Source: a bacterium
GTDB lineage: Bacteria; Patescibacteriota; Minisyncoccia; Phycocordibacterales; Phycocordibacteraceae
Assembly (NCBI GenBank): GCA_021782715.1
Contig: JAJXUR010000001.1
Span: forward strand, 1-32,741
DNA length: 32,741 bases
Direction: 5' to 3'
Shown one piece after another: positions 15 through 24,008 of this stretch. The notes beneath the pieces were generated by a model. That model did no database searches. It saw only the letters and a program-made list of their open reading frames with translations, and was not told where the DNA came from. The position numbers and the translations under genes are program-made. Numbering within the stretch: the stretch's first letter is position 1; every line of letters starts with the position of its first letter.

Positions 15-265
15 ATAGCGGGGTAGAGGAGAGCTGTGTCCCACAGGCGGGAGGGCAGTTGCAAAGCTTCCCGTAAGAAAAGTAGAATACATATAGCGGG
101 GTAGAGGAGAGTTGGTAATCCAAGCGGGAGGGCGAGTGCGAAGCTCTTCAGGTCATGATAGCTATAACATAGCGGGGTAGAGGAGAGCTGTGTCCCACAG
201 GCGGGAGGGCAGTTGCAAAGCTTCCCGTAAGAAAAGTAGAATACATATAGCGGGGTAGAGGAGAG
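15..265 (+). repeat. Tandem array of four copies of the 19-nt block ATAGCGGGGTAGAGGAGAG (2 leader nt plus tRNA-Met positions 1-17). Copies start at 15, 93, 169 and 247, giving a 76-78 nt period. The fourth copy is the real tRNA 5' end.
   Basis: Read directly. Units 15-92 and 169-246 are identical. Unit 93-168 differs after the 19-mer but keeps GCGGGAGGG, which resembles the anticodon-stem 5' strand. Each pseudo-unit replaces the D-arm 3' side with a small hairpin: CTGTG-TCC-CACAG or TTGG-TAAT-CCAA. Confidence 0.9.
213..242 (+). promoter_or_regulatory. Sigma70-like promoter TTGCAA-N18-TAGAAT, ending about 7 nt before tRNA position 1. An identical copy at 59-88 faces pseudo-unit 2.
   Basis: Hexamers and spacing read from the sequence. 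There is no experimental support. Confidence 0.45.
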
Positions 266-319
266 GTACCTCGGGAGGCTCATAACCTCCAGACGCCGGT
301 TCGATTCCGGCCCCCGCAA
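249..319 (+). tRNA. tRNA-Met, anticodon CAT, initiator-like; CCA is not encoded
   Basis: A manual cloverleaf fits. Acceptor is AGCGGGG/CCCCGCA with a 1:72 A.A mismatch. D stem is GAGG/CCTC with A11:T24. Anticodon arm is GGAGG-CTCATAA-CCTCC. Variable loop is 4 nt. T arm is GCCGG-TTCGATT-CCGGC. The 3' end CCGGCCCCCGCAAC matches my memory of E. coli tRNA-fMet. Only 2 of the 3 canonical G:C pairs are present at the base of the anticodon stem. Confidence 0.85.
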
Positions 320-390
320 CACGGTTGTGAGTCAGTGTCAAGTACCGTCCCCCATCAGAAATCTCTGAAATCGGGTACAGTACCGCTAGG
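320..390 (+). repeat. Partial copy (M1) of the module core, directly abutting the tRNA 3' end
   Basis: CACGGTTGTGA ... AGTACCG ... GGGTACAGTACCGCTAGG aligns with the cores at 2289, 3914 and 6018. Confidence 0.6.
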
Positions 391-430
391 CATGAAGCTC
401 CGAAAAATAAAAAAGCGCATGCAACACCAG

Positions 431-757
431 ATGAAATTATCGACAGAGCCTTTCAATCAGATTGCTTCTGGTGCGAAGGTCATTGAGTCGCGTCTCTTTG
501 ATGAGAAGCGCCAACAAATCGCGCTCGGTGATGAGATAGAGTTCAGTGAGAACGATCACCCAGAAAACAAGGTGCGTACGAAGGTTATCGGGCTTCTTCG
601 CTATCAATCGTTTAAAGACCTTTTCGCGGACCATGAGCCGGCGCTCTTTGGCGGCGAGAGCAGGGAGTTTCTCTTCAGTCAGATTAAACAATTCTATTCG
701 GACGAAGACGAGCAGAAGTATGGTGTCGTGGGCGTGCGAATCGAAAAACTTGACTAA
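431..757 (+). CDS. ASCH domain protein. ATG 431 is preferred, with ATG 419 as an alternative. The track start at 335 lies inside the repeat/tRNA trailer.
   Basis: MKLSTEPFNQIASGAKVIESRLFDEKRQ..GDEIEF resembles the ASCH (ASC-1 homology) N-terminus. The protein would be about 108 aa. Confidence 0.7.
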   Translation: MKLSTEPFNQIASGAKVIESRLFDEKRQQIALGDEIEFSENDHPENKVRTKVIGLLRYQSFKDLFADHEPALFGGESREFLFSQIKQFYSDEDEQKYGVVGVRIEKLD

Positions 758-778
758 GTGAGCATATTTCCGAAAAGA

Positions 779-817
779 ACACAGAAGCCGCGACGCACGT
801 CGCGGCTTCTGTGTTTG
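779..817 (+). terminator. Hairpin with a 16-bp perfect stem, ACACAGAAGCCGCGAC-GCAC-GTCGCGGCTTCTGTGT, followed by TTT
   Basis: Read directly. It lies 3' of the ASCH gene. The same stem recurs at 17454-17493. Confidence 0.6.
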
Positions 818-835
818 TCCAGTATCATTGCGTGT

Positions 836-1075
836 ATGAAGATCTACGCCGAAGTTGGGATTGGGAATGGCACGTTCTTCTCAACTGAATACGAAGATGG
901 TGATCGGGAATATCGAGTCTCAAGATTCGTGAGACCACCACGTGTAATGGAATATTATGTTCGTATTTGGATACGAAAGACGGTGTATATATTCTCGACT
1001 AACGAGGGTTTCAAGAAAGTCCCAAAAGATAAAACCAGATTCAAGCTCCTGTTTGGAGTGGGCGGCGTGCGTTAG
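836..1075 (+). CDS. Hypothetical small protein, 79 aa
   Basis: This is an ORF only. The track start at 758 would read through the terminator hairpin, so ATG 836 is preferred. Confidence 0.45.
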   Translation: MKIYAEVGIGNGTFFSTEYEDGDREYRVSRFVRPPRVMEYYVRIWIRKTVYIFSTNEGFKKVPKDKTRFKLLFGVGGVR

Positions 1076-1084
1076 TATAACAAT

Positions 1085-1720
1085 ATGATCAAGAGTATCT
1101 TCCTCCTCAGCATGATGAGCCCGCTCGATGAGAGTCTGCGCGAAGCGCTCGCCAGAGAGATTCTCAAGCGCGGCACGAAGGTGGCATATATATCTTCAAG
1201 TCCGCAGACTGGCGACCAACCATATTACCAATCCACCATTGCCGACTATACTGCCATTAGTCCCGACATCCGCATCGACTATTTCGACCTCTCAGATGCC
1301 TTTACGGATGAAATGCTTGCAGGACTTTCTTCCTATGCCGCCATCTATCTCTCGGGAGGGAATACGTTCACGTTCATGGATAGTGCACGGAAGCGCGGAC
1401 TCCAGACACTGCTTGAACAGCATCTAGCAAACGGTGGCGTCCTTGTCGGTGCGAGCGCAGGGAGCATTATGTGCACACCATCGATCGAGCTCGCGAAATT
1501 TGGTGACGAGAATGAGGTTGGCATGATCGACTTCTCGGGCTTCGGTTTTGTCGATTTCGAGTTTCATCCGCACTTCACGGGCGATCAGTACGAGCACATG
1601 CATCTTACAGAATACCAACGCACGCACGGGCGGGAGATTTATACATGCAAGGACGGAGCGGGGCTGCATGTTTCTGATTTAGGAGTAGAAGCATTTGGAA
1701 GTGTATCGAAGTATACTTAA
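1085..1720 (+). CDS. S51 family peptidase (peptidase E / cyanophycinase-like)
   Basis: LSGGNTF and VGASAGS motifs are typical of the S51 serine peptidase fold. Confidence 0.7.
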   Translation: MIKSIFLLSMMSPLDESLREALAREILKRGTKVAYISSSPQTGDQPYYQSTIADYTAISPDIRIDYFDLSDAFTDEMLAGLSSYAAIYLSGGNTFTFMDSARKRGLQTLLEQHLANGGVLVGASAGSIMCTPSIELAKFGDENEVGMIDFSGFGFVDFEFHPHFTGDQYEHMHLTEYQRTHGREIYTCKDGAGLHVSDLGVEAFGSVSKYT

Positions 1721-1724
1721 CAAT

Positions 1725-2099
1725 ATGGAAAAACAACCGACCAGCAATATGGAAAACAAAATAACCAACTCTGCCGAATATCTCGGTAAGACGGTTGCGA
1801 TAAAAATCGATCGACAGCTCGGGTCGAAGCACCCGAAGCACGGATTTGTGTATGAGCTCAACTATGGCTTCGTGCCAGATACTATCTCACCCGATGGAGA
1901 AGAACTCGATGCGTATTTGCTTGGCGTCGATACCCCTGTCGAGACATTTACGGGCGAGTGCATTGCGATTATTCACCGCACCAACGATGATGATGACAAA
2001 CTGATTGTCGTGCCAGAAGGGAATGTTTTTTCAGACGAAGAAATCCGCACGATGACGAATTTCCAAGAGCAATTCTTCAAATCAGAGATTGTGAGATAA
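1725..2099 (+). CDS. Inorganic diphosphatase-like protein (short family I PPase fold)
   Basis: NYGFVPDT..DGEELDAYLL...DDDDKLIVVP resembles the PPase core NYGFIPxT..DGDPLDxLVL..D.KIIAVP. ATG 1725 avoids overlap with the upstream gene. Confidence 0.5.
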   Translation: MEKQPTSNMENKITNSAEYLGKTVAIKIDRQLGSKHPKHGFVYELNYGFVPDTISPDGEELDAYLLGVDTPVETFTGECIAIIHRTNDDDDKLIVVPEGNVFSDEEIRTMTNFQEQFFKSEIVR

Positions 2100-2135
2100 A
2101 CATACATGATCTGATGTATAAGAATATCTGAGCAT

Positions 2136-2565
2136 GGGCGCGGGAATCGAACTATAGCGAGTAAGGTAAAAAATGGGGATAGGAATCGAACTCTAGCAAA
2201 TACGGGACGAAATCGTCGATTCGATTCGCGCCCCCGCAACAAACGAGCGAAGGCGAGTGCAGTGCCCAGCGCCAGCAGGCGGCGGGTGCACGGTTGTGAC
2301 GCCAGGAACCAGTACCGACAGGCATCAAAATTGGTACTGTACCGCTCAGGGTGTTCACCAGAAAAAGCTCGCAAATACAATGCGAGCTTTTTCTGTTATG
2401 TAGCATTTCCAACATATTTCCAGTTCGATTCCGGCTCTCGTATTCGGTGCAGTTTCGTGTCGCAATCACATCAAAATTGATCTGGTTTTGAGCAGGGGCA
2501 CAGGAATCGAACTGGCGAAAGAAAGTGAATACGCCGGTTCCTGACTTCCCGTCCTCCCGAGGGGT
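2136..2565 (+). repeat. Intergenic repeat module M2: tRNA-fragment head, tRNA 3'-end-like site, 117-nt core, and tail hairpin
   Basis: GGAATCGAAC (reverse complement of a T-loop) occurs at 2143, 2182 and 2503. TCGATTCGATTCGCGCCCCCGCAAC at 2215-2240 resembles the tRNA 3' end. The core at 2289-2405 is 115/117 identical to 3914-4030. Confidence 0.8.
2362..2392 (+). terminator. Intrinsic terminator AAAAAGCTCGCA-loop-TGCGAGCTTTTT
   Basis: 8-bp stem flanked by an A-run and a T-run. It closes the 117-nt core. Confidence 0.8.
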
Positions 2566-2597
2566 CAGTACAGTTTTAGGGTTGCCGGCAATGACCA

Positions 2598-2626
2598 TTG
2601 ACGATATGCATAATCCATGTTATCTT
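2598..2626 (+). promoter_or_regulatory. Promoter-like TTGACG-N17-(TGt)TATCTT upstream of the 2798 gene
   Basis: Hexamers and an extended -10 TG were read from the sequence. About 170 nt of structured leader follows. Confidence 0.45.
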
Positions 2627-2797
2627 AACGGCAGCTCTCAGGCTCTTTCCATCCCAAGAATCACTCCCCATGAAGCGAGCTTTGTGCGACCTATCTTTTA
2701 CAATTGTTATCGCAAGATAGCTAACTAGGTCGTACGCAGCTCGCCTCATGGGAGGACAGAGTCGCTCACCCGACGGTTCGGGACAAGGGATAACGTC

Positions 2798-3694
2798 ATG
2801 ACGACGATTACTCAAGCTGCACAAGCAACAGCCGGTCAAATCAAGCAGATCAACCGGTTTGGCTCCGACGCCATCGAGAAAGTCCTCGGTGAATTCGGCC
2901 TCGACAACCCTGGCGCTCAACGCGTCATCGAACACGGCGACGAATTCTCCGAAGCTATCCGTATCGCAGTGCTCGCCTCGCTCAAAGACCTGTCGGTCTT
3001 CGACAAGTACAAGAACGAAGAAGTATCCTCGACGTACGGCTACCTCTCTGGCTACAAGAAGCCGAAGAGTATCACCGAGCAGACCAACATCCTCCGTCAG
3101 ATGTTCCCTGGTATTGGCTTTGCCGACGAGAAGCTTGCCGAACGTGAAGTGCCGAAGAATGCCGACAACGGATGGTTCGCCATCCCGAAGTGGCAGTCGC
3201 TCGCACCAACCTATGGTGAAGCCGTCCAACTGGTGCTGAACAAACTCAATGAATCCCGTAACGGTGCGTTCTACAACTACCGCGAAGGTGAACTGGGTCC
3301 TGATCAGCTCCGCCAATCAGCGAAGACGGTAAGTATGTTCCAGAAGCTTGCTGAAGAGCAGAGCAAGTACGACATCCTTGTGGTCGCAGCCCAATTCGGC
3401 ATACGCCACCGTGGTCGCTCCGTTCGTCGTGTGCGTGAGATCCTGCTCGGCAACGAGTTTGGCCTCGGCGCATTTGCCGTCGGCATCATGCTCCTCACGC
3501 ATCCGGAACGTTTTCAGCACGACAATGACCTCTACATCGACTGCGCCGGCGACGAGTTCAAGCCGAGTGACGAGCACGAGTTCTCGCGCGCCCCGATCTG
3601 GAACTTCGACGACGACGAGCTCAAGTTCGACGCGTGCGGGGTCGGCAATGCGGACTTCAACTACGGCTCGGCTTCCGGCTTCCTTCCGCAGTGA
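2798..3694 (+). CDS. Hypothetical protein, 298 aa, no family recognised
   Basis: Long ORF with no predicted TM segments by eye. It is preceded by the M2 promoter and leader. Confidence 0.7.
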   Translation: MTTITQAAQATAGQIKQINRFGSDAIEKVLGEFGLDNPGAQRVIEHGDEFSEAIRIAVLASLKDLSVFDKYKNEEVSSTYGYLSGYKKPKSITEQTNILRQMFPGIGFADEKLAEREVPKNADNGWFAIPKWQSLAPTYGEAVQLVLNKLNESRNGAFYNYREGELGPDQLRQSAKTVSMFQKLAEEQSKYDILVVAAQFGIRHRGRSVRRVREILLGNEFGLGAFAVGIMLLTHPERFQHDNDLYIDCAGDEFKPSDEHEFSRAPIWNFDDDELKFDACGVGNADFNYGSASGFLPQ

Positions 3695-3766
3695 TTCTTG
3701 CTGCTTGAGTTCTTGGGTCTTTTGCAATTTAATTCTTTTGCTTGATCCTTGGGCTCGAAAATTTTC

Positions 3767-3805
3767 GGGGTTATTCACTTGCTGGATAACCCCGATTTCT
3801 TTTTA
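3767..3805 (+). terminator. Intrinsic terminator GGGGTTAT-loop-ATAACCCC followed by a T-rich tract
   Basis: Read directly, 3' of the 2798-3694 gene. Confidence 0.7.
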
Positions 3806-3808
3806 TAA

Positions 3809-4190
3809 TGGGCGTCGGAATCGAACCGCAGCGAGCAAAGTAAAAAATGGGGGCAGGAATCGAACTTGAGTATCTAGGCCGTAGAAAGTCCAGTTCGATT
3901 ATGGACCCGGCAACACGGTTGTGACGCCAGGAACCAGTACCGACAGGCATCAAAACTGGTACTGTACCGCTCAGGGTGTTCACCAGAAAAAGCTCGCAAA
4001 TACCATGCGAGCTTTTTCTGTTATGTAGCAAATACAACAGATATTCAGTTCGATTCCGATTCTCGTATTGAACGACGTTTCGTGTTGCAATCACATCCAA
4101 GTCGGCCTGATTTTAAGCGGGGGGCGCGGGAATCGAACTGGCGAAACTCAGTGTCTACAGCGGTTCCCGATCCCCGTCCTTCCGTGGGTG
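3809..4190 (+). repeat. Intergenic repeat module M3, same architecture as M2
   Basis: GGAATCGAAC occurs at 3817, 3856 and 4129. CAGTTCGATTATGGACCCGGCAAC at 3891-3914 resembles the tRNA 3' end. The core spans 3914-4030 and the tail hairpin spans 4127-4169. Confidence 0.8.
3987..4017 (+). terminator. Intrinsic terminator, copy of 2362-2392 with one change in the loop
   Basis: Read directly. Confidence 0.8.
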
Positions 4191-4217
4191 GCGAGAATAT
4201 TCACCGTTCAACTTATG

Positions 4218-4226
4218 TGGTATACT
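4218..4226 (+). promoter_or_regulatory. Extended -10 element TGgTATACT upstream of the ABC-F gene
   Basis: Same position and form as the TGtTATCTT element in M2. No good -35 is present. Confidence 0.4.
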
Positions 4227-4296
4227 AAACTCACTCCAATGAAGTATTACGCATAAGCTTTTATCAGCTAATCACGGGGCCGACACACGCCCCGGT

Positions 4297-5904
4297 ATGC
4301 GTATGCAAATACTTCTCTCTACAAAAGACATAGGGTTCGAACTTCCGGATAAAACGCTATTTAAAGCGCTTACGTTTCCCCTTTCCAAAGGCGATCGCAT
4401 AGGACTCATTGGAAAGAACGGCGAAGGGAAAACGACGATTCTTAAGATCCTGGCTAAGGTGGCAGAACCAAGCTCTGGGCACGTGAATGTCATCGGGAAA
4501 GTCCATTATGTCCCGCAACTGGATTTCGCGCTTTTCGAGCAGGCTGACACGGTGGTTGTTTTTCTCAAAAGCAAAGGTATCTCATGGCCCCTCGTACAGG
4601 CGTCACTCGGTCGACTCTTTGGTGTGCCGAGTATTACTAAGGATAAAGAAATGCGAGCACTATCTGGAGGCGAGCTTGCCAAGCTGTTGATTGCCATAGC
4701 CGATACGGATAGGCCAGATATCCTCTTGCTCGATGAGCCGACTAACCATCTCGATGTCGAAGGTCTGGAAGTCTTGAAGAACTACCTACTTACGTTTAAG
4801 GGCGCGTTCGTTGTGGTATCTCATGACCCTTTGTTCTTGGATCATGTCGTATCTGCCATTTGGGAGATCGACATGGGAAGCCTGTCCCGCTTTGGTGGCA
4901 ACTACTCGGAGTACCAGGAACAGAAGCGACTAGCCGATGAAGCCCGTGAACGCGATCTTGAAGCAGCAAAGAAAGACGTGAAGAAAGCACGCAGAGCAAT
5001 TGAAGCTCGCGAGACTCGGGTCGTTCGTGCCGCACGTACCGGGAGGCTTGCTAAACTTGAGCCAAGTCGGGACAAAATGGCCGAGGCGCACCGCACCAAC
5101 ATGGCCGAACGGGAGGCGGGGAAACTGAAACGCCGACAAGACCGCATGATGGAAGAGCGACAGCAACACGTCTCGCAATTGGAAAGACCGAAACGAAAGA
5201 CGGCACATCTTGATCTTGCTGTCGGCGCGGAGCGTTCTAAGCGGATGCTCGTTAGCGTGTCTGACGGCCTGCTTGGAGTGGGAAATACGAATCTAATTCA
5301 GGATATCAGTCTGCGTATAGAATTTGGCGACCGCATCGTCTTCACTGGTAAGAATGGCTCGGGGAAGAGCCTCCTCGTTAAGGCACTCATGGGTATGCCA
5401 GGCCCGTTCTCGTTCGAAGGGACAATCAGGCGTGGAGAAAATCTCGATGCGGTGTATATGGATCAGAAATATCAATCTGTTGATCCCGAACTCTCCATTC
5501 TCGAGAATCTTCTGCAGGCGAATCCACACTTAGATGAAAATGCCGCTCGAGGTCAGCTCGGCAAGTTTCTTTTTGGCGTGGATGTGAGCATCAAGAAAAA
5601 GTCTGGGACACTTTCGGGCGGAGAAATCGCTCGTCTTGTCCTTGCGCAGGTTACGTCTAAACCGATTGATCTGCTCGTTCTTGATGAACCTACGAACAAT
5701 CTTGATATTGAAACGCTAGATATTATCGCTGACGCCCTCCGGGATTTTTCAGGTGCGCTAGTAGTTGTATCGCACAACGTTCACTTTCTGTCGCGACTCG
5801 GGATTAATCGTGCATACGTTATTAGTGAAGAGCGATTGAAGGAGATGAAGTTCTTGCCTGAGAACGAAGTTGAATTTTATTCTGAGCTTGTTGCTGCGGA
5901 ATAA
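4297..5904 (+). CDS. ABC-F family ATPase: two ABC domains joined by a charged linker, no TM domain
   Basis: Walker A motifs are GKNGEGKT and GKNGSGKS. LSGGE occurs twice. Walker B motifs are LLLDEPTNHLD and LVLDEPTNNLD. The interdomain linker is rich in K/R/E. Confidence 0.85.
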   Translation: MRMQILLSTKDIGFELPDKTLFKALTFPLSKGDRIGLIGKNGEGKTTILKILAKVAEPSSGHVNVIGKVHYVPQLDFALFEQADTVVVFLKSKGISWPLVQASLGRLFGVPSITKDKEMRALSGGELAKLLIAIADTDRPDILLLDEPTNHLDVEGLEVLKNYLLTFKGAFVVVSHDPLFLDHVVSAIWEIDMGSLSRFGGNYSEYQEQKRLADEARERDLEAAKKDVKKARRAIEARETRVVRAARTGRLAKLEPSRDKMAEAHRTNMAEREAGKLKRRQDRMMEERQQHVSQLERPKRKTAHLDLAVGAERSKRMLVSVSDGLLGVGNTNLIQDISLRIEFGDRIVFTGKNGSGKSLLVKALMGMPGPFSFEGTIRRGENLDAVYMDQKYQSVDPELSILENLLQANPHLDENAARGQLGKFLFGVDVSIKKKSGTLSGGEIARLVLAQVTSKPIDLLVLDEPTNNLDIETLDIIADALRDFSGALVVVSHNVHFLSRLGINRAYVISEERLKEMKFLPENEVEFYSELVAAE

Positions 5905-5907
5905 AGA

Positions 5908-6047
5908 AAAAATGGGGGCAGGAATCGAACTGTAGCGAGCAAAGCAAAAAATGGGAGCAGGGATCGAACTCTAGCAAATACGGGGCGAAATCGTCGATTC
6001 GATTATGGACCCAGCAACACGGTTGTGACGCCAGGAACCAGTACCGG
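5908..6047 (+). repeat. Intergenic repeat module M4: head plus the first 30 nt of the core
   Basis: GGAATCGAAC occurs at 5921 and the variant GGGATCGAAC at 5960. The head is near-identical to the M2 head (CTCTAGCAAATACGGGrCGAAATCGTCGATTCGATT). The site and core start are near-identical to M3. Confidence 0.75.
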
Positions 6048-6088
6048 CTCGCCTAAAGGTCAGTACGGTATCGGCAGGCATCACGTAT

Positions 6089-6125
6089 GCAAAGATCGCG
6101 ACAATTGTCGCGATCTTTGCATTTT
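6089..6125 (+). terminator. Perfect 14-bp hairpin GCAAAGATCGCGAC-AATT-GTCGCGATCTTTGC followed by ATTTT
   Basis: Read directly. It ends 18 nt before the ATG at 6143. Confidence 0.75.
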
Positions 6126-6142
6126 AGAGATAAAGTTGGAGT

Positions 6143-7264
6143 ATGGATCACGAACAAACTATAGATTCGACCCTGATCACAAAGGACGAGCTGAAGGGGA
6201 AATTAATTGAGTTTTTCCAGATTGCAAAAGCATCTGGAGATTTGAGTGCTGGTATTCGAAGGTATCTAGAGTTTGTGAAAGACAACTATCACAGCCTCGA
6301 TGCGGAGGCGAAACTCGTGGGAGACAAGGCATTTGATGCTATAGGAGAAGCGACTGCGGAGGCTCTAAATAAAATGCCCGATAGTGTCGAGAAAAGACGT
6401 CTTGCTAGACTGCACGCAAAATCTCAAGGTCGACATTGGGACATAAAGGAGCTGTCAAAATCTCTCGAGGCGGGAACGCATCTCAAAGAGAAAATCTTGC
6501 AGGAGACCGATGATTTCTTCTTTGAGCATGTCCAACTGATTGCAGATTTTATACATGATGTAATCAGCGGTTCGGTTCACGGTCCAGATCTGGCGCTCCT
6601 GAGTCTGTATTGCTCAGCTCTTGATGAGTTGATTGTTTCCAGGCATTTGACTCAGCACGGCTATACACCGCAAGCCTTAGCACATCAGCGCACAGTTCAC
6701 GAAATCTTAGATCAAATAGAACTTTTTAGCAAAAAGCCGGAATACTTGGATTTGTGGGCGAGCGAGACCTCAGAGGACAGAAAGAAGGCACGTTGGGGAT
6801 TACGCCCGAAAGGGGTTCGTGAAAAACTCGGTAGGGAGGGTTATGACCCAATCTTCAGCTTCTTATCTGAAATGGGTTCACACTCCACAATGAAATACAT
6901 TCAGTCGAAAGTTTTTATGCAAAGACCGCATAAGGATGGCGACGTCAAAGGCGAAGCAAAGATTTTCGTCGGCGGAAGTCCGCGAACCGATACGCTCATG
7001 GTTGCCAGTACAGGGTTAGTACAATCAGTCATGGGCACCCTCACCTCCTTCAGTGTCACCTATCAAGATTTTCTCTTGGCTGAAGAAGGGATTCAGGTAT
7101 TGCAAAGCGCATTTGAAAAATATAAAGGATATATGCTCAGGAACTTTGTCGATTGGATGAGGGCGGAAGGGGCGAATGTGTCTTCTCTGGAGACTTACAT
7201 TAAAAGCCTGGACCAGGAGACATTAATGCGAATGTCAGAGGAAAAGTCTTCCGGATCTATTTAG
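6143..7264 (+). CDS. Hypothetical protein, 373 aa, with a vague resemblance to DUF5677-type helical proteins
   Basis: Long ORF with a GGAG 8 nt upstream. The family guess comes from memory only. Confidence 0.7.
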   Translation: MDHEQTIDSTLITKDELKGKLIEFFQIAKASGDLSAGIRRYLEFVKDNYHSLDAEAKLVGDKAFDAIGEATAEALNKMPDSVEKRRLARLHAKSQGRHWDIKELSKSLEAGTHLKEKILQETDDFFFEHVQLIADFIHDVISGSVHGPDLALLSLYCSALDELIVSRHLTQHGYTPQALAHQRTVHEILDQIELFSKKPEYLDLWASETSEDRKKARWGLRPKGVREKLGREGYDPIFSFLSEMGSHSTMKYIQSKVFMQRPHKDGDVKGEAKIFVGGSPRTDTLMVASTGLVQSVMGTLTSFSVTYQDFLLAEEGIQVLQSAFEKYKGYMLRNFVDWMRAEGANVSSLETYIKSLDQETLMRMSEEKSSGSI

Positions 7265-7413
7265 TCTGCAGCAAGTGATACGTTTTTTCCTTTAAGAACA
7301 AGTTTCCCGCGCAACTGCTCGAGCAGTTGTCGCTTCTCCTCGATCGTGCCTGCTTCAAGTAGATACTTCGCGTAGCGCTTGATATCCACGCCCTTCGGCG
7401 AGACTATTTTCGT
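7261..7413 (-). pseudogene. C-terminal gene remnant of about 50 codons with no start codon
   Basis: The minus frame reads TKIVSPKGVDIKRYAKYLLEAGTIEEKRQLLEQLRGKLVLKGKNVSLAAD*. It is bounded upstream by TGA. Its stop overlaps the stop of the 6143 gene. Confidence 0.35.
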
Positions 7414-7500
7414 TCACGAGATTTTCTTGAAGTCCAGACTCCAGTTTTGTGCAAACAATATAACGGAGGCAGATCATATGTCGTAACGACCGAGTATTTT

Positions 7501-7704
7501 GGTGGAACGTTAGGCTTCAACAGTGGGACTATGGAAGAAAGAATGCAGGCACTCGTCGGTTCGGGGTTTGAGCGCATATTTCAGATAGGTAGCGTGTTCA
7601 GAAGCTCAGAGGAGCTGACTTTCGTAGAGGGGTACGCGGCGCATATGGATTGGGAAACAGGCCAATCTATGATTCGGAATATGTGTCGCTACGTAGCAAA
7701 AAAA
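7501..7704 (+). pseudogene. Fragment of a class II aminoacyl-tRNA synthetase (Lys/Asn/Asp-type, motif 2 region)
   Basis: GFERIFQIGSVFRSSEE..TFVEGYAAHMDW resembles GFERVFEIGRNFRNEG...EFTMLEFYQAY. The fragment is truncated on both sides and lacks the catalytic loop. Confidence 0.45.
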
Positions 7705-8135
7705 ATGGTTGAAGACGAATATTCTTCCGTGCACGGCGTGCATGCGTTCTGTTTTGTGGGTGATCAACTTGTCATCGTGTATTCTGACAAGAAAGGGTAT
7801 TGGACGCCGCCAGGTGGCGGGGTAGAGCCGGGCGAGACAGTTGAGGAAGCGATTGTGCGCGAAGTGTTCGAAGAAACAAATATGCGCGTGCTCAAGCAAC
7901 GTGTCATCGGCTACCAAGAAGTCTCTGAACCGCATCGGCTCACCGTGCAGGTACGCGCGGTCTGTATCGTCGAGCGCCAATCGGACCCTTTGTCGCAGAT
8001 GCCGACTCCAGCGATGGCGAAGGCGTCACCGAGATAAGACTTATCGATCCGAAGGATATAAAACAGTACTTTGATTGGGGCGAAGTCGGTGAGCATGTGC
8101 TTGTTCGCGCACTGGAATTAAAAAGTCTACTCTGA
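7705..8135 (+). pseudogene. NUDIX hydrolase with a frameshift near 7975-7990, or an assembly indel
   Basis: The Nudix box is GGGVEPGETVEEAIVREVFEETN. After ..AVCIVER the protein-like sequence continues in another frame as GPFVADADSSDGEGVTEIRLIDPKDIKQYFDWGEVGEHVLVRALELKSLL*, with its stop at 8133-8135. Confidence 0.6.
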
Positions 8136-8160
8136 TTCTTCATTGCTTAATGAGAGGTAA

Positions 8161-8199
8161 AATGAACCACGGCCGGCTTTTAGCCGGCCGTGGTTCATT
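8161..8199. terminator. Perfect 17-bp hairpin AATGAACCACGGCCGGC-loop-GCCGGCCGTGGTTCATT
   Basis: Read directly. The track start at 8190 lies inside it. Confidence 0.75.
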
Positions 8200-8219
8200 G
8201 TTGGTGTACTATACGAAAT

Positions 8220-8858
8220 ATGAACAAATCAGAGGTGAGCCTCTCTTTTATTTACAGCAAAGAAAGGGAAGTGGCGCGAGTTTTGGAAACCATTCAGTGG
8301 CTGCCGTGGTATCGCGATCATAAGTATCCAGATAATTTTGCAAAGCTGCCGCAAGAAATAACGGAGATGAGTTCTGTGGAAGAGATAGAGAAGGCTGTTT
8401 CCATCGAATATATGGAACAAGATTTTCGTGATATCGAAGAATATGTTCTAAGTCAGTGGGGAGGTTTCCAGGATGGATTCGAAAAGATGCGAGCGATAAA
8501 AGACCTTCGGTTAAGTGATTCTTATGAAGTTAGTTTAACGAGATATGGAAGTGGCGGGAGTTACAATGCCGCTAGAAATTCGCTCATCGTTAATATAAGA
8601 AATTCCTCTCAAAGAGAGCGGATTGCCGGGACGATAGTTCATGAAATCGTCCATATGACCATTCAGTATCTTATTGATGCTCATTCTGTTTCTCATTGGA
8701 GAAAGGAAGCGTTAGTCGACCATTTGTTTGCGTATTTCTTCCCGACGCTACATATGAGACAGTCGATTCCCGAGGACGTGACCATTGTCGATGATTCATT
8801 TAAGACTATGTTTCCTGATCTTGAGGAAATAGTTAAGACAATCAGCAATGCCCCATAA
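8220..8858 (+). CDS. Hypothetical protein with an HExxH (HEIVH) zinc-metalloprotease-like motif
   Basis: ORF from ATG 8220 with a TIVHEIVHMT motif. No family was recognised. Confidence 0.65.
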   Translation: MNKSEVSLSFIYSKEREVARVLETIQWLPWYRDHKYPDNFAKLPQEITEMSSVEEIEKAVSIEYMEQDFRDIEEYVLSQWGGFQDGFEKMRAIKDLRLSDSYEVSLTRYGSGGSYNAARNSLIVNIRNSSQRERIAGTIVHEIVHMTIQYLIDAHSVSHWRKEALVDHLFAYFFPTLHMRQSIPEDVTIVDDSFKTMFPDLEEIVKTISNAP

Positions 8859-8882
8859 AAATATTATTGCCTAATCTACAGG

Positions 8883-8916
8883 TATGGGTACGGGTACGGT
8901 ACCGGCCTGGGCAACA
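8883..8916 (+). repeat. Left 34-nt direct repeat flanking the copper operon
   Basis: TATGGGTACGGGTACGGTACCGGCCTGGGCAACA matches 13000-13033 at 30/34 positions. It is followed by CAGTCCGATTCCGAT..ATTGAATG, which is homologous to the M3 tail at 4046-4072. Confidence 0.7.
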
Positions 8917-8970
8917 ACATACTATCCAGTCCGATTCCGATATTGAATGTTCACTCAACAGTACTTGCTC

Positions 8971-8989
8971 TATACCCCTGGGGGGTATA
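8971..8989 (+). promoter_or_regulatory. Candidate CsoR operator, palindrome TATACCCC-TG-GGGGGTATA
   Basis: A GC-core inverted repeat of the TACCC..GGGTA type lies 11 nt upstream of the csoR ATG. Confidence 0.6.
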
Positions 8990-8999
8990 TGCTGCAGGG

Positions 9000-9275
9000 A
9001 TGAAGTACTTGCACGACGAAGGGAAGCAGAAGGTCATACGACGACTCAAGATCATCGAGGGCCAGATCCGAGGCCTGCAAGAGATGGTTGGGCAGGACAC
9101 CTACTGCATCGACATCATCACCCAGAGCTCCGCCGTGAAGCAGGCGCTTTCCGGTGTTGAGGACACGCTCATGGAAAATCACTTGAACCATTGCGTGCAC
9201 AAACAGATGACATCGGGCCAGACAGGGAAGGCAGTAGAAGAGGTCCTGAAGGTCTACAAACTTAAGAGAAAATAA
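9000..9275 (+). CDS. csoR: CsoR/RcnR family metal-sensing repressor
   Basis: The protein is 91 aa. [27 protein letters not shown] and the H..C ligand pattern are typical of the DUF156/CsoR family. Confidence 0.8.
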
Positions 9276-9276
9276 T

Positions 9277-11574
9277 ATGGAGTCACGCACCTACCGAGTC
9301 CAAGGAATGCATTGCGCCTCCTGCGCACACATCATCGAGAAAACGCTCAAGAAAGTCGAGGGCGTCCATTCCGTAGAAGTGAACTACGCTACAGAAGCGG
9401 CGAAAGTCTCCCATGATTCTGCAGTCACGAGTGCACAGGACCTTTCGAAGAAGATAGAGCCGCTCGGGTACTCGCTCGTCACCAATGCGCCATCAGCACA
9501 CGACATGGGAATGTCCGAAAGCGAACATGCAGCGCATCTCGGCCTTAATCAATCAAAAGCCGAGAAACTCGCAGAGCTTGCCACTATGAAGACCAAGGTA
9601 GTCACCGTTATGCCTATGGCAGCAGTTGCGATTGTCATTATGGCGTGGAATATCCTTGCAGAGTTTGACGCCGTCGCGCCACTTTCTCGATCCCTAAATG
9701 ACTCTCTCAATATATTACTCGCGCTTATGGCAACCTACGCGCTTTTTGTCGTCGGGAAGCCGTACCTCATGGGGTTCTACCGGTTTCTGCGTTACGGTGT
9801 CGCAAACATGGACACGCTCATCGGCATCGGTACGTCAGCGGCATTTCTCTATAGTATTATCATCACGGTCTTTCGTGAGGCGGTACGCCCTTACGTAAAC
9901 GTCAGTGTCACGTATTTCGATGTGGCTATTGTTGTGATTGCGTTTATTACGTTCGGGAAGTACCTTGAGGCGCGCGCGAAGATAAAGACAGGCGACGCCA
10001 TAGAGAAACTCCTCATGCTCCAAGCAAAAACAGCACTTGTCATTCGAGACGGTATTGAGGTGGAGATACCTGTCGAGCAGGTTGTGCATGGCGACCTCAT
10101 CATCGTAAAGCCAGCTGGAAAGATCCCTGTCGATGGTGTCCTCACTGGAGGATCGTCTTATGTGGACGAGTCGATGGTGTCGGGAGAGCCGGTGCCAGTC
10201 GAGAAACGTGTGGGTGATACGGTGGTCGCAGGGACATTGAACACCACCGGTTCGTTTACTTTCAGGGCAACGAAGGTCGGCTCGGAGACACTTCTGGCGC
10301 ACATCATACATATGGTGGAAGAGGCGCAAGGAAGTAAGGCGCCAATCCAAGCTTTGGCTGATAAAATTTCCGGCGTCTTTGTCCCTGCGGTACTTGCTAT
10401 AGCATTTCTTTCGCTCGGTGCATGGCTTTTCTTCGGTATTCCGTCGCTCGGGTTTGCACAGGCGTTGTCATTCGGTCTCGTGTCATTCGTTGGCGTCCTC
10501 GTGATTGCTTGTCCGTGCGCGCTTGGGCTTGCCACGCCGACAGCGATTATCGTGGGTGTTGGCAAGGGGGCAAAAGAAGGAATTCTCATCAAGGACGCTG
10601 CGACTCTAGAGAAGCTTCACCAGGTAGACGTGGTTGTCGTTGATAAAACAGGAACCATTACGAAAGGTAAGCCAGAACTTGTCTCGATACAAAACCAAAG
10701 TGACAAAAGCGAAGAAGAGCTCGTTGCCATCCTTGCCTCTCTTGAAAGTAAGTCAGAGCATCCGATTGCAAGCGCGATTGTCTCGTATGCAAAGACAGGT
10801 TCTGTCGCCCTTCGGCAAGTCGAGAACTTTAGCGTGCTCAAAGGAAGAGGGGTACGTGGCAATATCGATGGTGTGGAATATTACGCGGGTAATCCGCGTC
10901 TTATCCTCGAATTGTCGCTTGCGCTCGATATGAGTGCGATAGAACGCGAAACCCATGAAGGAAAAACTCCGGTAATTCTTACCACTACTACAAAAGTACT
11001 CGGCATCGTGCTGGTGGCTGATGCGATAAAGCCAGAAGCGGAAGAGGCGGTTACGAGTCTCCATAAGCTCGGTATACGCGTCGTGATGCTCACCGGCGAT
11101 AATGCGCAAACTGCCGACTTCATTGCAAAGCAGGTAGGTATAGACGAAATCGTCGCCGAAGTTATGCCCGAGGACAAGCTGAACAAGATTAAAGAACTGC
11201 AGGCGCAGGGTTGTGTGGTCGCCATGGCGGGAGACGGCATCAACGATGCGCCAGCGCTCGCACAAGCGGACGTGGGCATCGCGATGGCGACGGGAACCGA
11301 TGTTGCCATAGAGAGCGCCGGCATGACGCTTCTTCATGGTGATATCTCGAAGATCGTCAAAGCGATACGCCTCTCGAAGTTAACGATGCATGGTATCAAG
11401 CAGAATCTCTTTTTTGCCTTCGCGTACAATATCATCGGCATTCCGCTTGCAAGCGGACTCTTCTATCCGGTGTTCGGGTGGCTTTTGTCGCCAGTGTTTG
11501 CTGGATTTGCGATGGCCATGTCGAGCGTATCGGTTGTCGGGAATTCGCTACGTCTTAAAACTAAACAACTATGA
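9277..11574 (+). CDS. copA: Cu(I)-translocating P1B-type ATPase
   Basis: It has an N-terminal HMA domain (GMHCASC), the TM motif [10 protein letters not shown], and the DKTGTIT, SEHP and GDGINDAP motifs. Confidence 0.95.
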
Positions 11575-12593
11575 ACACCACCACACACGTATTTCACGTT
11601 AAGGGAATGCACTGCAAAGCGTGCACCGTCCTCATTGAGGAAATGTTTAACGAACTTCCAAATGTAGAGAGCGCGCACGTGTCACTTTCAGGACAGCAGG
11701 TGACGGTAGCGGGGGAGTTTACCAATACGCCGGAGAAAATAGCCGACGAACTCACGAAACTCGTACAGAGCCATGGGTACAGTATCGCGGTTGAGAAAAG
11801 CGCCCATAACGCAGGGTGGGGAGACTTCGTCTATGCGCTTCCTGTGGCGCTCGTTCTCATTGCTGGATTCATTCTGCTACAAAAGGCAGGACTGACTTCG
11901 CTTATTACTAGCTCGAAGGTGAGCTACGGCACAGCGTTCCTCATAGGGCTTATAGCGTCAGTTTCCTCGTGTCTCGCCATAGTCGGAGGTTTGGTGCTGT
12001 CTCTCTCGGCTAGTTCGGCGAAAGAGGGCGGGACCTGGCGCACGCCAGTACTCTTTCATGTGGGGCGCCTCGGGGGATTCTTTATTCTGGGTGGATTGGT
12101 TGGCGTAATTGGAAACTCGCTTCACCTCGGGCTCATGGCTAACGTGATATTGAGTAGTATCGTTGCACTCGTCATGCTTATTCTCGGCATTAACCTGCTC
12201 GACGTCTCCCATTTCACTCAAAGACTGCAAGTCACGCTCCCTACGCGCTTCTCGAAGCACATTGTCGCGGGGAGCAAGAAGGATCACTACCTCGCGCCGC
12301 TTTTAATCGGTGTCGGCACGTTCTTTCTGCCGTGCGGATTCACGCAGTCGATGCAGCTTTATGCACTTTCAACCGGTAGTTTCTCGCAAGGAGCCCTAAC
12401 GATGCTCGTCTTTGCACTCGGCACTTTCCCGGTGCTTGCGTTCCTTTCCTTCGGATCGCTCAATATTGTGCACAAACCATGGAAAGGGATTTTCTTCAAG
12501 ACGGCTGGCATAATTGTCATAGCGCTTGCAGTTCTGAACCTCAGTAGTGCGCTTGCTACGGCTGGAATTATTAACCCACTTTTCAACTTCTAG
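11571..12593 (+). CDS. HMA-domain membrane protein (DsbD_2 / TauE-SafE-like permease fold)
   Basis: It has an N-terminal GMHCKAC metal-binding domain and about 6 TM segments with SSC and FLPCG motifs. Its start overlaps the copA stop in an ATGA. Confidence 0.7.
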
Positions 12594-12594
12594 T

Positions 12595-12990
12595 ATGAAC
12601 GTACGAATAATCATTGCTCTTGCTGCCAGTGCGGTACTTATCGGATGGGCGTTCTGGTTCGTTTCAGCAAAACCTCAAGAGAATGGCGCGGGCGTGACGG
12701 CGCCGACGGCTACCATAGTTGATGGTAAACAGTTCGTTGATATCACCGCGAAGGGCGGTTACTCTCCGCGAGTGGTGGTAGCAAAAGCCGGAATACCAAC
12801 GATCTTGCGCGTTACCACGAACGGCACCTTCGACTGCTCGGCTAGCGTGGTAATCCCGAAGCTCTCATACCAGAAATTCCTGCAGCCGTCTGGCACGGAA
12901 GACATTGCTATCTCTGCTGAACAAGCCCAAGGAACCCTGCAGGGGCTGTGCGCGATGGGGATGTATAACTTCCAAATCAAATTCGAATGA
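12595..12990 (+). CDS. Membrane-anchored cupredoxin-like protein
   Basis: It has an N-terminal TM segment, a beta-rich C-terminus and a C..CAMGM motif. This type of protein commonly neighbours copper operons. ATG 12595 immediately follows the upstream stop. Confidence 0.55.
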   Translation: MNVRIIIALAASAVLIGWAFWFVSAKPQENGAGVTAPTATIVDGKQFVDITAKGGYSPRVVVAKAGIPTILRVTTNGTFDCSASVVIPKLSYQKFLQPSGTEDIAISAEQAQGTLQGLCAMGMYNFQIKFE

Positions 12991-12999
12991 GTCTTGGAA

Positions 13000-13033
13000 T
13001 ATGGGTACGGGTACCGTACCGCCCCGAGCAACA
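13000..13033 (+). repeat. Right 34-nt direct repeat. It is also the most distal decayed copy of the tRNA 3' end.
   Basis: CCGCCCCGAGCAACACG compares with the tRNA sequence CCGGCCCCCGCAACACG. It sits at the GC-content jump. Confidence 0.7.
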
Positions 13034-13034
13034 C

Positions 13035-13074
13035 GCAAAGCGAAGCCCGGCGCAAGCCGGGTCTTCGCATTTGC
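13035..13074 (+). terminator. Long imperfect hairpin GCAAAGCGAAGCCCGGC-GCAA-GCCGGGTCTTCGCATTTGC
   Basis: Read directly. It has one bulge and no strong T tract. Confidence 0.6.
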
Positions 13075-13126
13075 GCAGCGGTCGGGCGCGTGATATAGTT
13101 CGAATATCTAAGTAATATATACTCGC

Positions 13127-17439: not shown

Positions 17440-17453
17440 CGCTCGCGCAGAAC

Positions 17454-17493
17454 GCACACAGAAGCCGCGACGGATGTCGCGGCTTCTGTGTGC
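17454..17493. terminator. 18-bp perfect hairpin between the convergent cupin and xfp genes. Its stem is identical to the one at 779-814.
   Basis: GCACACAGAAGCCGCGAC-GGAT-GTCGCGGCTTCTGTGTGC. No T tract is present on either side. Confidence 0.6.
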
Positions 17494-23003: not shown

Positions 23004-24008
23004 TTACGCCCGGTGCTCTTCGAGGCCGTACCCGTGAACGACGGAGAGGAATACGGACAGCACGAGCGGTCCGAGTATGAAGCCGAGCGGCCCGAAGAAG
23101 AGGATACCGCCCAGGATAGAGAAGAGGACGAATATCGGCGAGACCGAACTGCCTTTCCCGAAGAAATATGAAGTGAGGATGTTGTCGACGAGGATGATAA
23201 TGAGGACGCCGGCGAGCGCCATGCCGAGAGCGCCAAGAGTGTCTCCACCGAGATAGAGGTAGAGGACAGCAGGGACGAATGCGAAGGGCGTCCCGAGACC
23301 AGGGATCGCTCCGACCACGCCGCCGATGCTGCTCCAGAGGATGGCATTCGGGATACCAAAGAGAGAGAACGCGATCCAGATGAGCGCCCAGCGGATAAGC
23401 GCGTTGAAGAAGGTTCCTTTTATGACTGATTGCACGGTCTGGTACATCTTGTCCATGATCTCTGTCGTCGCTTTCTTTCCGAAGGGGCTCACTTTGACGA
23501 GGTAGGCGAGCATGTCCTTTCCGTCACGGAGGAAGAAGAAGAGCGTGAGAAGCATCAGGAAGATCTCGAGGATGATGTAGAGCGTCTGATAGACGAGCGA
23601 GCCGAGGTTGTCCGAGATCATGACGAGCGCATTTCCCACAAATGAGTTTATATCGAACGTGAACGCCGGGAATATTTGTCGCAACGGGTTCTCGATCGCC
23701 GTCTGGATACTGCTTATGAATTGTGAACCGGCGGAAAGCCCCTGTGCTTCTTTGTAGATCTGCACCCCGAGGAAAAAGAGGGGAACGATGCAGAACGCGA
23801 GCGTCAGGGCGACCGTGAGCAGCGCGGCAAGATTTTTCCATCCGCCGAATATGTTCGTGAGGCGTTCATACGGCCGACGGAGAAATATCGTGAAGACGAT
23901 AGCGAGCGAGAGGAGAGGGAAGAATGGCGCGAAGACGAAGAGAAGAAGCAGAGAAACGGCTACGAAGAGCCCGGCAAGCGAGACGAGTTCCAGTCGGTCT
24001 TTCGGCAT
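23004..24008 (-). CDS. AI-2E family transporter (PerM/UPF0118)
   Basis: The protein is 334 aa with about 8 TM segments. Its topology and sequence are typical of the family. Confidence 0.8.
   Translation of the reverse strand: MPKDRLELVSLAGLFVAVSLLLLFVFAPFFPLLSLAIVFTIFLRRPYERLTNIFGGWKNLAALLTVALTLAFCIVPLFFLGVQIYKEAQGLSAGSQFISSIQTAIENPLRQIFPAFTFDINSFVGNALVMISDNLGSLVYQTLYIILEIFLMLLTLFFFLRDGKDMLAYLVKVSPFGKKATTEIMDKMYQTVQSVIKGTFFNALIRWALIWIAFSLFGIPNAILWSSIGGVVGAIPGLGTPFAFVPAVLYLYLGGDTLGALGMALAGVLIIILVDNILTSYFFGKGSSVSPIFVLFSILGGILFFGPLGFILGPLVLSVFLSVVHGYGLEEHRA

Follow-up and report, generated by a model that had tools for sequence, protein, structure and literature searches.

The window analysed here is a stretch of 32,741 nucleotides (nt) from a bacterium of the Patescibacteriota (contig JAJXUR010000001.1, positions 1 to 32,741 of the forward strand), and the subject of this work is the array of three short tandem units at its very beginning, directly upstream of a tRNA-Met gene whose 5' part is copied in each unit. 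The 19-mer ATAGCGGGGTAGAGGAGAG, which comprises two leader nucleotides and the first 17 nt of the tRNA, is found in exact copies at 15-33, 93-111, 169-187 and 247-265, and Tandem Repeats Finder describes the array with a period of 77-78 nt and 3.2-3.3 copies. A fifth match, at 23899, has 3 mismatches, and five matches were reached in none of 100 shuffles. Given that positions 15-111 and 169-265 are identical (100% over 97 nt), the order of the array is A-B-A-tRNA, where units 1 and 3 are of the same type A and unit 2 is of a diverged type B. The gaps between the 5' copies measure 57-59 nt and are themselves derived from tRNA and promoter sequence. The features of the array and of the tRNA are the following:

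2-7, + strand, candidate -10 box (TATCAT) of the outermost promoter P1, assigned from its position in relatives
15-92, + strand, unit 1, type A, 78 nt, covariance-model score 72-78 bits
17-33, + strand, unit 1, copy of tRNA nt 1-17, preceded by 2 leader nt
34-46, + strand, unit 1, hairpin CTGTG/TCC/CACAG
48-54, + strand, unit 1, copy of tRNA nt 25-31, CGGGAGG
59-64 and 83-88, + strand, unit 1, -35-like box TTGCAA and -10-like box TAGAAT
93-168, + strand, unit 2, type B, 76 nt, covariance-model score 52-64 bits
95-111, 112-123 and 125-131, + strand, unit 2, copy of tRNA nt 1-17, hairpin TTGG/TAAT/CCAA and CGGGAGG
136-141 and 156-164, + strand, unit 2, weaker boxes, -35-like GTGCGA and, after a 17-nt spacer, TG-n-TAGCTA; the next +1 is 171
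169-246, + strand, unit 3, type A, identical to unit 1
171-187, 188-200 and 202-208, + strand, unit 3, copy of tRNA nt 1-17, hairpin and CGGGAGG
213-218 and 237-242, + strand, unit 3, TTGCAA and TAGAAT, the latter ending 6 nt before the tRNA +1
249-319, + strand, initiator-type tRNA-Met (CAT), 71 nt, A1xA72, A11:U24, CCA not encoded (ARAGORN, Rfam)

Much of this anatomy had been proposed in an earlier note on the same DNA, made from the sequence alone. The four copies that it placed at 15, 93, 169 and 247, with a spacing of 76-78 nt, are borne out by the exact matches and by Tandem Repeats Finder; the hairpins CTGTG-TCC-CACAG and TTGG-TAAT-CCAA, followed by CGGGAGG, lie where it had put them; and GCGGGAGG, in which it saw a resemblance to the 5' strand of the anticodon stem, is a true copy of tRNA nt 25-31. 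Its statement that the units have neither a T arm nor an acceptor 3' strand is confirmed by the sequence, by ARAGORN and by Rfam, and units that end before the T arm do not qualify as functional tRNAs. TTGCAA-N18-TAGAAT, found twice in the window (59-88 and 213-242), is indeed placed so that it could start a transcript at the following +1, but the distance from its end to the 19-mer is 4 nt, where the note had about 7, and that to +1 is 6 nt. A further repeat upstream, with nt 1-14 as its tail, is not supported, the identity to the tail of either unit being about 5 of 14 by our own reading. Instead, TATCAT (2-7) ends 9 nt before A17, and in relatives TATAnT ends 7-10 nt before the +1 of the first copy. 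Judged by this box, which sits at the position of the outer -10 box of relatives, the array need not continue upstream of the window, and the -35 box of P1 would be out of view because the window begins too late.

No terminator-like site, and no candidate intrinsic terminator or attenuator, was found on the + strand in 1-330, where the unit hairpin is followed by GCGGGAGGG and not by a U tract, and no complement of the 17-mer is present in the window.

The tRNA gene behind the array

Only the fourth copy is called as a tRNA (ARAGORN, 249-320; Rfam tRNA, 58.9 bits, 249-319). Its acceptor stem is GCGGGG/CCCCGC, and by reading, positions 30:40 and 31:39 are G:C pairs while 29:41 is A:U. A mismatch of the A1xA72 type, an A11:U24 pair and an acceptor stem of this kind are features of bacterial initiator tRNAs. 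The closest match in E. coli is a tRNA-Met found at a median of four places per genome across all complete E. coli genomes, and the K-12 match located between argG and rimP-nusA is metY, an initiator gene, with 78% identity over 99% of the length. Alignment with the fMet and elongator Met tRNAs of E. coli agrees with this assignment. By these sequence features, tRNA 249-319 is of the initiator (fMet) type. A second, elongator-like tRNA-Met lies nearby in one of the related loci (L007).

At most loci of this tRNA the CCA end is not encoded, and the sequence reads GCAACACGG or GCAACAAG. The -10-like boxes end 6-8 nt before the tRNA +1 in unit-bearing and unit-less genes alike, and this distance suggests that initiator tRNAs in this group are transcribed nearly without a 5' leader.

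The units form a family in relatives

The distribution of the units was explored by scanning genomes and metagenomes for two exact copies of GCGGGGTAGAGGAG located 50-80 nt apart. Among bacteria and archaea represented by one genome per species, 15 stretches were obtained, 14 of which come from metagenome-assembled genomes (MAGs) of Patescibacteria, also known as the Candidate Phyla Radiation (CPR), with organism labels taken from the MAG record titles. The remaining one (L011, a contig of a 'Stenotrophomonas' MAG) was rejected as an unrelated repeat. The same scan gave 27 metagenome contigs with the tandem pattern and no match in viral contigs. In all CPR loci the final copy is the 5' end of a nearly invariant tRNA-Met, which stands behind one to at least three units. 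The collected loci hold 51 units, 40 of them distinct.

Class I units are 73-84 nt long and have a fixed order of parts. Two leader nucleotides and tRNA nt 1-17 are followed by a hairpin of 4-6 bp with a loop of 3-4 nt, then by (G)CGGGAGG (nt 25-31), [T/A/G]TGC[G/A]A, 16-18 nt, TAnnnT, and 6-8 nt up to the next +1. Class II units (L015, L022, L033 and L034) are 88-92 nt long and retain tRNA nt 1-21 together with the anticodon loop and its 3' strand, CTCATAACCTCC(AGAC), with nt 22-31 replaced, and the units of L007 retain the whole D arm. Because the classes keep different parts of the tRNA, the units are truncated tRNA genes, cut at no fewer than two or three different breakpoints. With a covariance model, class I units reach 38-79 bits and the tRNA itself about 25 bits; this separation of more than 13 bits makes the model usable for annotation. 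Searches of Rfam, whether at the gathering threshold or more permissive, assigned the units to no family, and the best non-tRNA match in 1-420 has E = 1. Likewise, searches of the literature on initiator tRNA in CPR, on pseudo-tRNAs and leaders in Patescibacteria and on transcription starts in Saccharibacteria found nothing comparable.

A sample independent of the repeat was obtained by finding relatives through the conserved gene upstream (in the order gatC, gatA, the gene of a 193-aa protein, tRNA). Units were present in 2 of the 11 lineages of this sample (L052 and L054). Relatives have the usual neighbourhood of gatA and the 193-aa gene ahead of the first unit, followed by a promoter, TTGC[CT]C-16/17-TATACT, about 7 nt before +1, that is the same in relatives that have no units. 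This match indicates that the ancestral promoter of the tRNA gene now reads into the first unit.

In many Patescibacteria, the gene that lies between gatA and the initiator tRNA encodes a conserved protein of about 192 aa (L002, 4911-5492; L013, 6884-7471). It has no Pfam domain, has 875 homologues besides those of L002 and L013, and is named 'AC78 family protein' in one source; the stop codon of its gene directly precedes the tRNA promoter. Two peculiarities were seen among the units of relatives. The unit of L018 (84 nt) holds TAAAGT three times in tandem inside the promoter spacer, and in L030 a decayed remnant of ATAGCGGG, possibly a worn-out extra unit, lies between the outer -10 box and the unit.

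Promoter-like boxes in the units

TAnnnT ending 6-10 nt before the next +1 is found in 22 of 33 class I units, compared with a mean of 2.3 and a maximum of 7 in shuffled sequences. When nTGCnn or TTGnnn is also required 16-18 nt upstream, 19 of the 33 units still comply, compared with a mean of 0.18 and a maximum of 3 in the shuffles. In silico, the units thus have the hexamers, the spacing and the start distance of putative sigma-70 promoters. The reading of NTGCGAAGC as a mini-ORF was rejected in favour of a -35 box because its spacing to the -10-like box is fixed.

A covarying hairpin and a copy that tracks the tRNA

Pairing in the hairpin was evaluated in a structure-aware alignment of 28 class I units, in which 99.2% of the hairpin cells are paired, in an alignment fitted to the hairpin, compared with 27-51% for slid partners and 79% for column shuffles, none of 500 of which reached the observed value. 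Three of the five pairs change on both sides, with a covariation score of 0.53 versus 0.21, and on the plain MAFFT register pairing amounts to 87.5% versus 38-49%. The stems include CTGTG/CACAG, TTGG/CCAA, CCGTG/TACGG, TTGCG/CGCAA, TCGCG/CGCGA, GCCGC/GCGGC, GCTGCG/CGCAGC and GCTGT/ACAGC. The search of relatives and the scoring of covariation in two hairpins, which the earlier note had proposed as a check, came out positive for the family and for this first hairpin, with 14 CPR genomes, 27 metagenome contigs and a hairpin that stays paired. For single units, shuffling of the hairpin is a weak test (p = 0.01-0.4), and the argument rests on the comparative counts. The G·T pairs in L004/L037, L010 and L014 fit the + strand only, and since they would be A·C mismatches on the opposite strand, the hairpin belongs to the + strand RNA.

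The second hairpin described in the earlier note can be drawn in both unit types of the window, but neither it nor any longer-range structure is supported across relatives by RNAalifold on a MAFFT alignment of whole units, which gave a consensus energy of about 0. This energy is explained by hairpins of differing length that fall out of register. Readings of the first hairpin as the palindrome of a transcription factor, an RNase III site, a G-quadruplex or a terminator were rejected by inspection, because the sequence is too variable, the G·U pairs are strand-specific, no U tract follows and the stem has only 4-6 bp.

Within hairpin types, the segment from the hairpin to the -35 box has an identity of 86%, compared with 60%, near saturation, for the remainder of the unit. 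The copied anticodon-stem segment follows the tRNA of its own locus: at nt 25-29 the two agree in 29-30 of 30 lineages, and at nt 31 in only 20 of 30. T27 (L003, L038) and G29 (L003, L019) occur in units only with the matching tRNA (Fisher p = 0.002 each), and C1 units are found only beside C1 tRNAs. For nt 1-17, recombination and homogenisation from repeat to repeat is a sufficient explanation of the identity to the tRNA. Conversion is harder to invoke for nt 25-30 because heterologous sequence divides this segment from the 19-mer, and their tracking is the least explained of our observations. Taken on these comparative grounds, the module is a real, selected element.

Interpretation of the array

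The reading that we favour, with a probability of about one half, is that the array consists of amplifiable promoter-leader modules, which arose by partial duplication of the single initiator tRNA gene, and the module probably shapes the production of initiator tRNA. The description in the earlier note is strengthened by a hairpin that covaries and a box spacing that is kept. Among the three explanations that it offered, promoter amplification is the one that fits best; small RNAs are conceivable in the form of leader RNA, but are disfavoured as free-standing molecules by the lack of terminators; and recombination leftovers, taken as integration scars, are not supported by the spacing of the copies and the comparison with relatives given below. 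The initiator identity of the tRNA, the CPR family, the origin by truncated duplication and the integration hotspot on the 3' side go beyond that note.

As we picture it, a partial tandem duplication would have copied the promoter and the 5' part of the tRNA, leaving out the T arm and the acceptor 3' strand. The box pairs would start RNA polymerase at the +1 of the next copy, or 1-2 nt before it, and because each promoter aims at an AGCGGGG... copy, all primary transcripts would begin with the acceptor/D 5' strand. The proximal promoter would yield an essentially leaderless tRNA, and the one to three upstream promoters, with no intervening terminator, would yield precursors with one or more leaders of 77 nt, which RNase P would have to remove at the true +1. 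Firing of these additional promoters may raise initiator tRNA output or make it tunable, and the leader may delay or modulate maturation. One RNA polymerase footprint is close to the length of a unit, about 77 bp, and for this reason adjacent promoters could be occupied together. With 19-bp direct repeats that can recombine or slip, the number of units would change, which would permit the loss of a unit without a scar and would account for the identity of units 1 and 3.

Before cleavage, the leader copy may replace the 5' strand of the tRNA on the acceptor 3' strand. Folding predicts that the acceptor 3' strand pairs with the leader copy in 27 of 28 precursors made of a unit plus the tRNA (mean probability 0.84 vs 0.07), and because the leader takes this strand, slower or gated maturation by RNase P is predicted for transcripts from upstream promoters. 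In these models, pairing with the leader is a structural consequence of the duplication and not proof of regulation.

Several points weigh against the favoured reading. About one third of the class I units have no clean box pair and those of class II seem to have none at all; with so many units of this kind, an extra promoter cannot be the whole story, and a model of promoters only leaves the covarying hairpin and the tracking of nt 25-30 unexplained. In the sample drawn through the upstream gene, units are absent from 9 of 11 lineages (L044, L048, L050, L055, L056, L057, L060, L061 and L062), from which it follows that the module is dispensable and patchy; patchiness of this kind is expected from 19-bp direct repeats, because recombination excises a unit and leaves the gene intact. 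Furthermore, we infer promoter activity, transcription start sites and leader RNAs alike, equilibrium folding is silent on co-transcriptional kinetics, the scan for two exact 14-mers biases the collection towards intact 5' copies, and the hairpin alignment was fitted to the structure that it evaluates.

That the leader RNA is primary and the promoters secondary is a possibility that we keep in view, although not a probable one. The 5' copy would then be a conformational competitor in cis (a 'pro-tRNA' switch) that occupies the 3' strands of the tRNA and thereby gates RNase P processing or yields a long alternative form. Within the unit, conservation is highest in the transcribed 5' 50 nt and not in the box pair, the hairpin covaries as + strand RNA, and nt 25-30 change along with the cognate tRNA. 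Class II units hold the 5' copy without convincing promoters, the outermost promoter always puts a copy at the 5' end of the transcript, and the leader copy is the predicted winner of the acceptor 3' strand in nearly every precursor. However, the same folding is expected from any duplicated 5' strand, no signal that would flip the switch is evident, the copy of nt 27-31 has no free partner in the tRNA once the anticodon stem has formed, and most relatives have no such element. In addition, acceptor positions 2-7, which would pair with nt 66-71, are invariant in the data set and offer no covariation.

Tentatively, this could be carried further, to modules that act as a new kind of cis-acting 'self-mimic' leader, which gates maturation by RNase P or makes a long variant of the initiator tRNA. 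In the former case, a tRNA-like acceptor/T-arm end might be formed with the leader copy, and a pro-tRNA switch might set the supply of initiator tRNA. In the latter, the D-loop of the long form might take up 77 nt in its variable pocket, and the 5' end would need no RNase P.

We consider it doubtful that the units are a neutral by-product, in which duplications would arise in the slippage-prone, polypurine and palindromic 5' region of a highly transcribed gene and decay without function. The presence of units in 2 of 11 lineages, the at least three unit classes with differing breakpoints, the recent identical copies and the easy gain and scarless loss that 19-bp direct repeats allow are all in line with such a process. 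It does not account for hairpin pairing that survives changes on both sides, for a 5' half that is kept (86%) next to a 3' half near saturation (60%), for box-pair spacing far beyond the shuffled expectation, or for nt 25-30 that follow the cognate tRNA despite the heterologous sequence before them.

Free small RNAs, decoys (for instance of a tRNA-fMet-directed nuclease) or a leader peptide, with GGGAGG, 4 nt and NTG CGA AGC as its start, are improbable. The copy number is variable, the purine-rich single strands resemble Shine-Dalgarno sequences, and an NTG (N = A, T or G) comes after the GGGAGG of 31 of the 33 class I units. Nonetheless, no unit has a terminator behind it, so that read-through into the tRNA is to be expected, and the units have no anticodon loop, which is the target of known tRNA-fMet nucleases. 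As to the peptide, NTGCGA lies 16-18 nt from the -10-like box, as a -35 box would, NTG is missing in two units, and the putative ORFs have 1-22 codons with no conserved peptide or frame. A leader-peptide attenuator was rejected for the same unconserved ORFs and the same lack of a terminator.

It is very improbable, and largely refuted, that the units were left by integrative elements as scars or attachment sites of recombination in the 5' part of the tRNA gene. It is true that this tRNA is an integration hotspot, with cassettes at 320-13033 of the window and an integrase gene beside the tRNA in L044, and that partial tRNA copies are the usual signature of integration. All such signatures, however, lie on the 3' side and are copies of the T arm and the acceptor 3' strand, while the 5' copies do not behave as duplicated att sites: they are only 57-59 nt apart, with sequence derived from the tRNA and promoter between them, relatives have ordinary host genes and the ancestral promoter upstream, and the tandem pattern has no match in viral contigs.

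It is equally hard to believe that assembly inflated a single unit to three: the window does begin inside or beside the array and 97 nt are the same in units 1 and 3, but 2-4 units are present in independent assemblies from other samples (L003, L007, L008, which equals L052/L053, L034 and L036), identical adjacent or alternating units recur in L007, L034 and L003 as in the window, L036 shares the A-then-B order, and unit 2 is a distinct type, with a hairpin type also found in L005, L008, L028, L036, L039 and L054, and not an expanded or collapsed copy.

Comparison with known systems

The module has no described counterpart in Rfam, and what it resembles is tandem promoters of a stable RNA in which every repeat also holds the exact start of the mature RNA and a covarying hairpin. 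In the P1-P2 arrangement of the E. coli rrn operons, serial sigma-70 promoters drive one stable-RNA gene and the leader from the upstream promoter is processed off. The modules share with it the serial promoter-like boxes, the single stable-RNA gene and a leader that could be removed. Unlike rrn P1-P2, they carry with each promoter an exact copy of nt 1-17 of the mature RNA and a covarying hairpin, they are head-to-tail repeats of about 77 bp in variable number, and their proximal start is seemingly at the mature 5' end.

In E. coli tyrT, the tRNA-Tyr gene is reportedly followed by 178-bp repeats, each with the last 19 nt of the tRNA, which have been attributed to unequal recombination. Both are tandem units beside a tRNA gene and bounded by about 19 nt of the tRNA, and tyrT would be the mirror image, with repeats of the 3' end, located downstream, with terminator-like sequence, and in one species. 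The tyrT repeats are not known to have a covarying structure or to track the cognate tRNA.

The attL and attR sites of islands and prophages with tyrosine integrases are also short exact copies of tRNA parts beside an intact gene, but these are 3' parts kilobases apart, while the modules hold closely spaced 5' parts. Nanoarchaeum equitans has leaderless and split tRNA genes, with promoters set for a start at the tRNA +1. The modules likewise have promoter-like boxes that aim at the tRNA +1 and free-standing 5' parts of a tRNA; unlike those of N. equitans, they are bacterial, have no matching 3' half or joining sequence, and are read through into an intact tRNA. As 5' halves of a split tRNA the units do not qualify, because they stop at nt 17 and 31, inside the D loop and the anticodon stem, and have no D 3' strand, and the T-arm-like fragments found downstream have no anticodon 3' strand ahead of them.

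Sequence or structure resembling tRNA is used for regulation by the 3'ETS-leuZ sponge, the thrS operator and the T-box. These leaders and spacers and the modules have in common that transcript parts outside the tRNA carry tRNA-like sequence; none of the three is known to copy the 5' strands of a tRNA onto the 5' end of its own precursor. A CRISPR array was rejected as an identity for the repeats: the 'spacers' are homologous to one another, units 1 and 3 are identical, and no cas domains were found in the scanned ORFs.

Significance

The supply of initiator tRNA sets the capacity and fidelity of translation initiation, and in CPR bacteria the gene is present in a single copy. The module would give genomes with very little regulatory machinery a means, not recognised before, of tuning or controlling a stable-RNA gene. 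With about 150 nt, it would also offer a system in which to study the competition of identical strands in tRNA folding and RNase P processing, the birth of promoters by partial gene duplication and the reversibility of copy number through direct repeats. On the practical side, the unit repeats probably break short-read assemblies at the tRNA locus.

Cassettes and introns at the initiator tRNA gene

Downstream of the tRNA, and outside the element discussed so far, lie inserted sequences. The tRNA 3' side is a classic integration hotspot, and the features of this region are the following:

320-13033, lower-GC cassettes between the tRNA 3' end and the original terminator, about 12.7 kb (GC 0.44-0.54 vs 0.56-0.65 afterwards)
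2143-2153, - strand, T-loop-like motif
2182-2192, - strand, T-loop-like motif
2422-2432, + strand, T-loop-like motif
2503-2513, - strand, T-loop-like motif
3817-3827, - strand, T-loop-like motif
3856-3866, - strand, T-loop-like motif
4047-4057, + strand, T-loop-like motif
4129-4139, - strand, T-loop-like motif
5921-5931, - strand, T-loop-like motif

There are five cassettes, with ends at 2240, 3914, 6018, 8915 and 13032, and at the close of each the tRNA 3' end recurs in degenerate form (...GCAAC). The presumed original terminator of the tRNA, at 13034-13075, resembles the tRNA trailer of L013. The cargo includes ASCH, DUF3977, peptidase S51, a pyrophosphatase, an ABC-F ATPase, NUDIX, and a copper ATPase with CsoR and DsbD_2; domain scans of the ORFs found no integrase domain in the cassette region. 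The segment 320-13033 has the look of elements accreted in tandem at an att site in the tRNA, or of a cassette array similar to an integron.

A conserved module opens each cassette, at 320-400, 2289-2545, 3914-4170 and 6019-6100 of the window, and is also present directly after the tRNA in L003, L006, L021, L054 and L060. It reads ACGGTTGTGACGCCAGGAACCAGTACCG, a variable loop, GGTACTGTACCG, a terminator-like hairpin and T-arm-like fragments. Its long hairpin differs between loci with the pairing kept, Rfam gave no match to it, and an att arm or a small RNA not recognised so far are conceivable identities.

Ten T-loop-like fragments were counted near the borders of the cassettes, where the nine motifs listed above ([AG]GTTCGATTCC, at most 1 mismatch, both strands) are clustered. 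Several of these motifs run into ends that resemble the acceptor 3' strand, for example TGGGCGCGGGAATCGAAC, and no tRNA is called at any of them. Two stretches, 3888-3915 and 5992-6019, have arms that seem to have recombined within TTCGATT. The first cassette (ASCH and the following genes) is also present on the metagenome contig L001 (3445-3800, compared with 1-360 of the window), which has no tRNA; to the left of the cassette, L001 has ...GGGTACGGGTACCGTACCGCCGCGGGCAAC and the gene of a ParB-N6 methyltransferase in place of the tRNA. Given this other left neighbour in L001, the cassettes occur in varying orders or contexts.

In many relatives a group I intron is found in the anticodon loop of the initiator tRNA, namely in L044, L056 and L061 (Rfam Intron_gpI, 56-65 bits) and, as recognised by reading, in L012, L041, L048, L050 and L055. 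Two different sites are occupied, GGCT|TGAG... and CTCAT|GTGA.... Of the nine lineages of the independent sample that have no units, six have the intron, and L012 and L041 have both the intron and a unit.

Finally, a hairpin-forming sequence of 41 nt, AACACAGAAGCCGCGACG.ATGTCGCGGCTTCTGTGT, occurs at 774-814 and 17451-17491 with 90% identity, one copy lying in the inserted cassettes and the other in the higher-GC part of the window.

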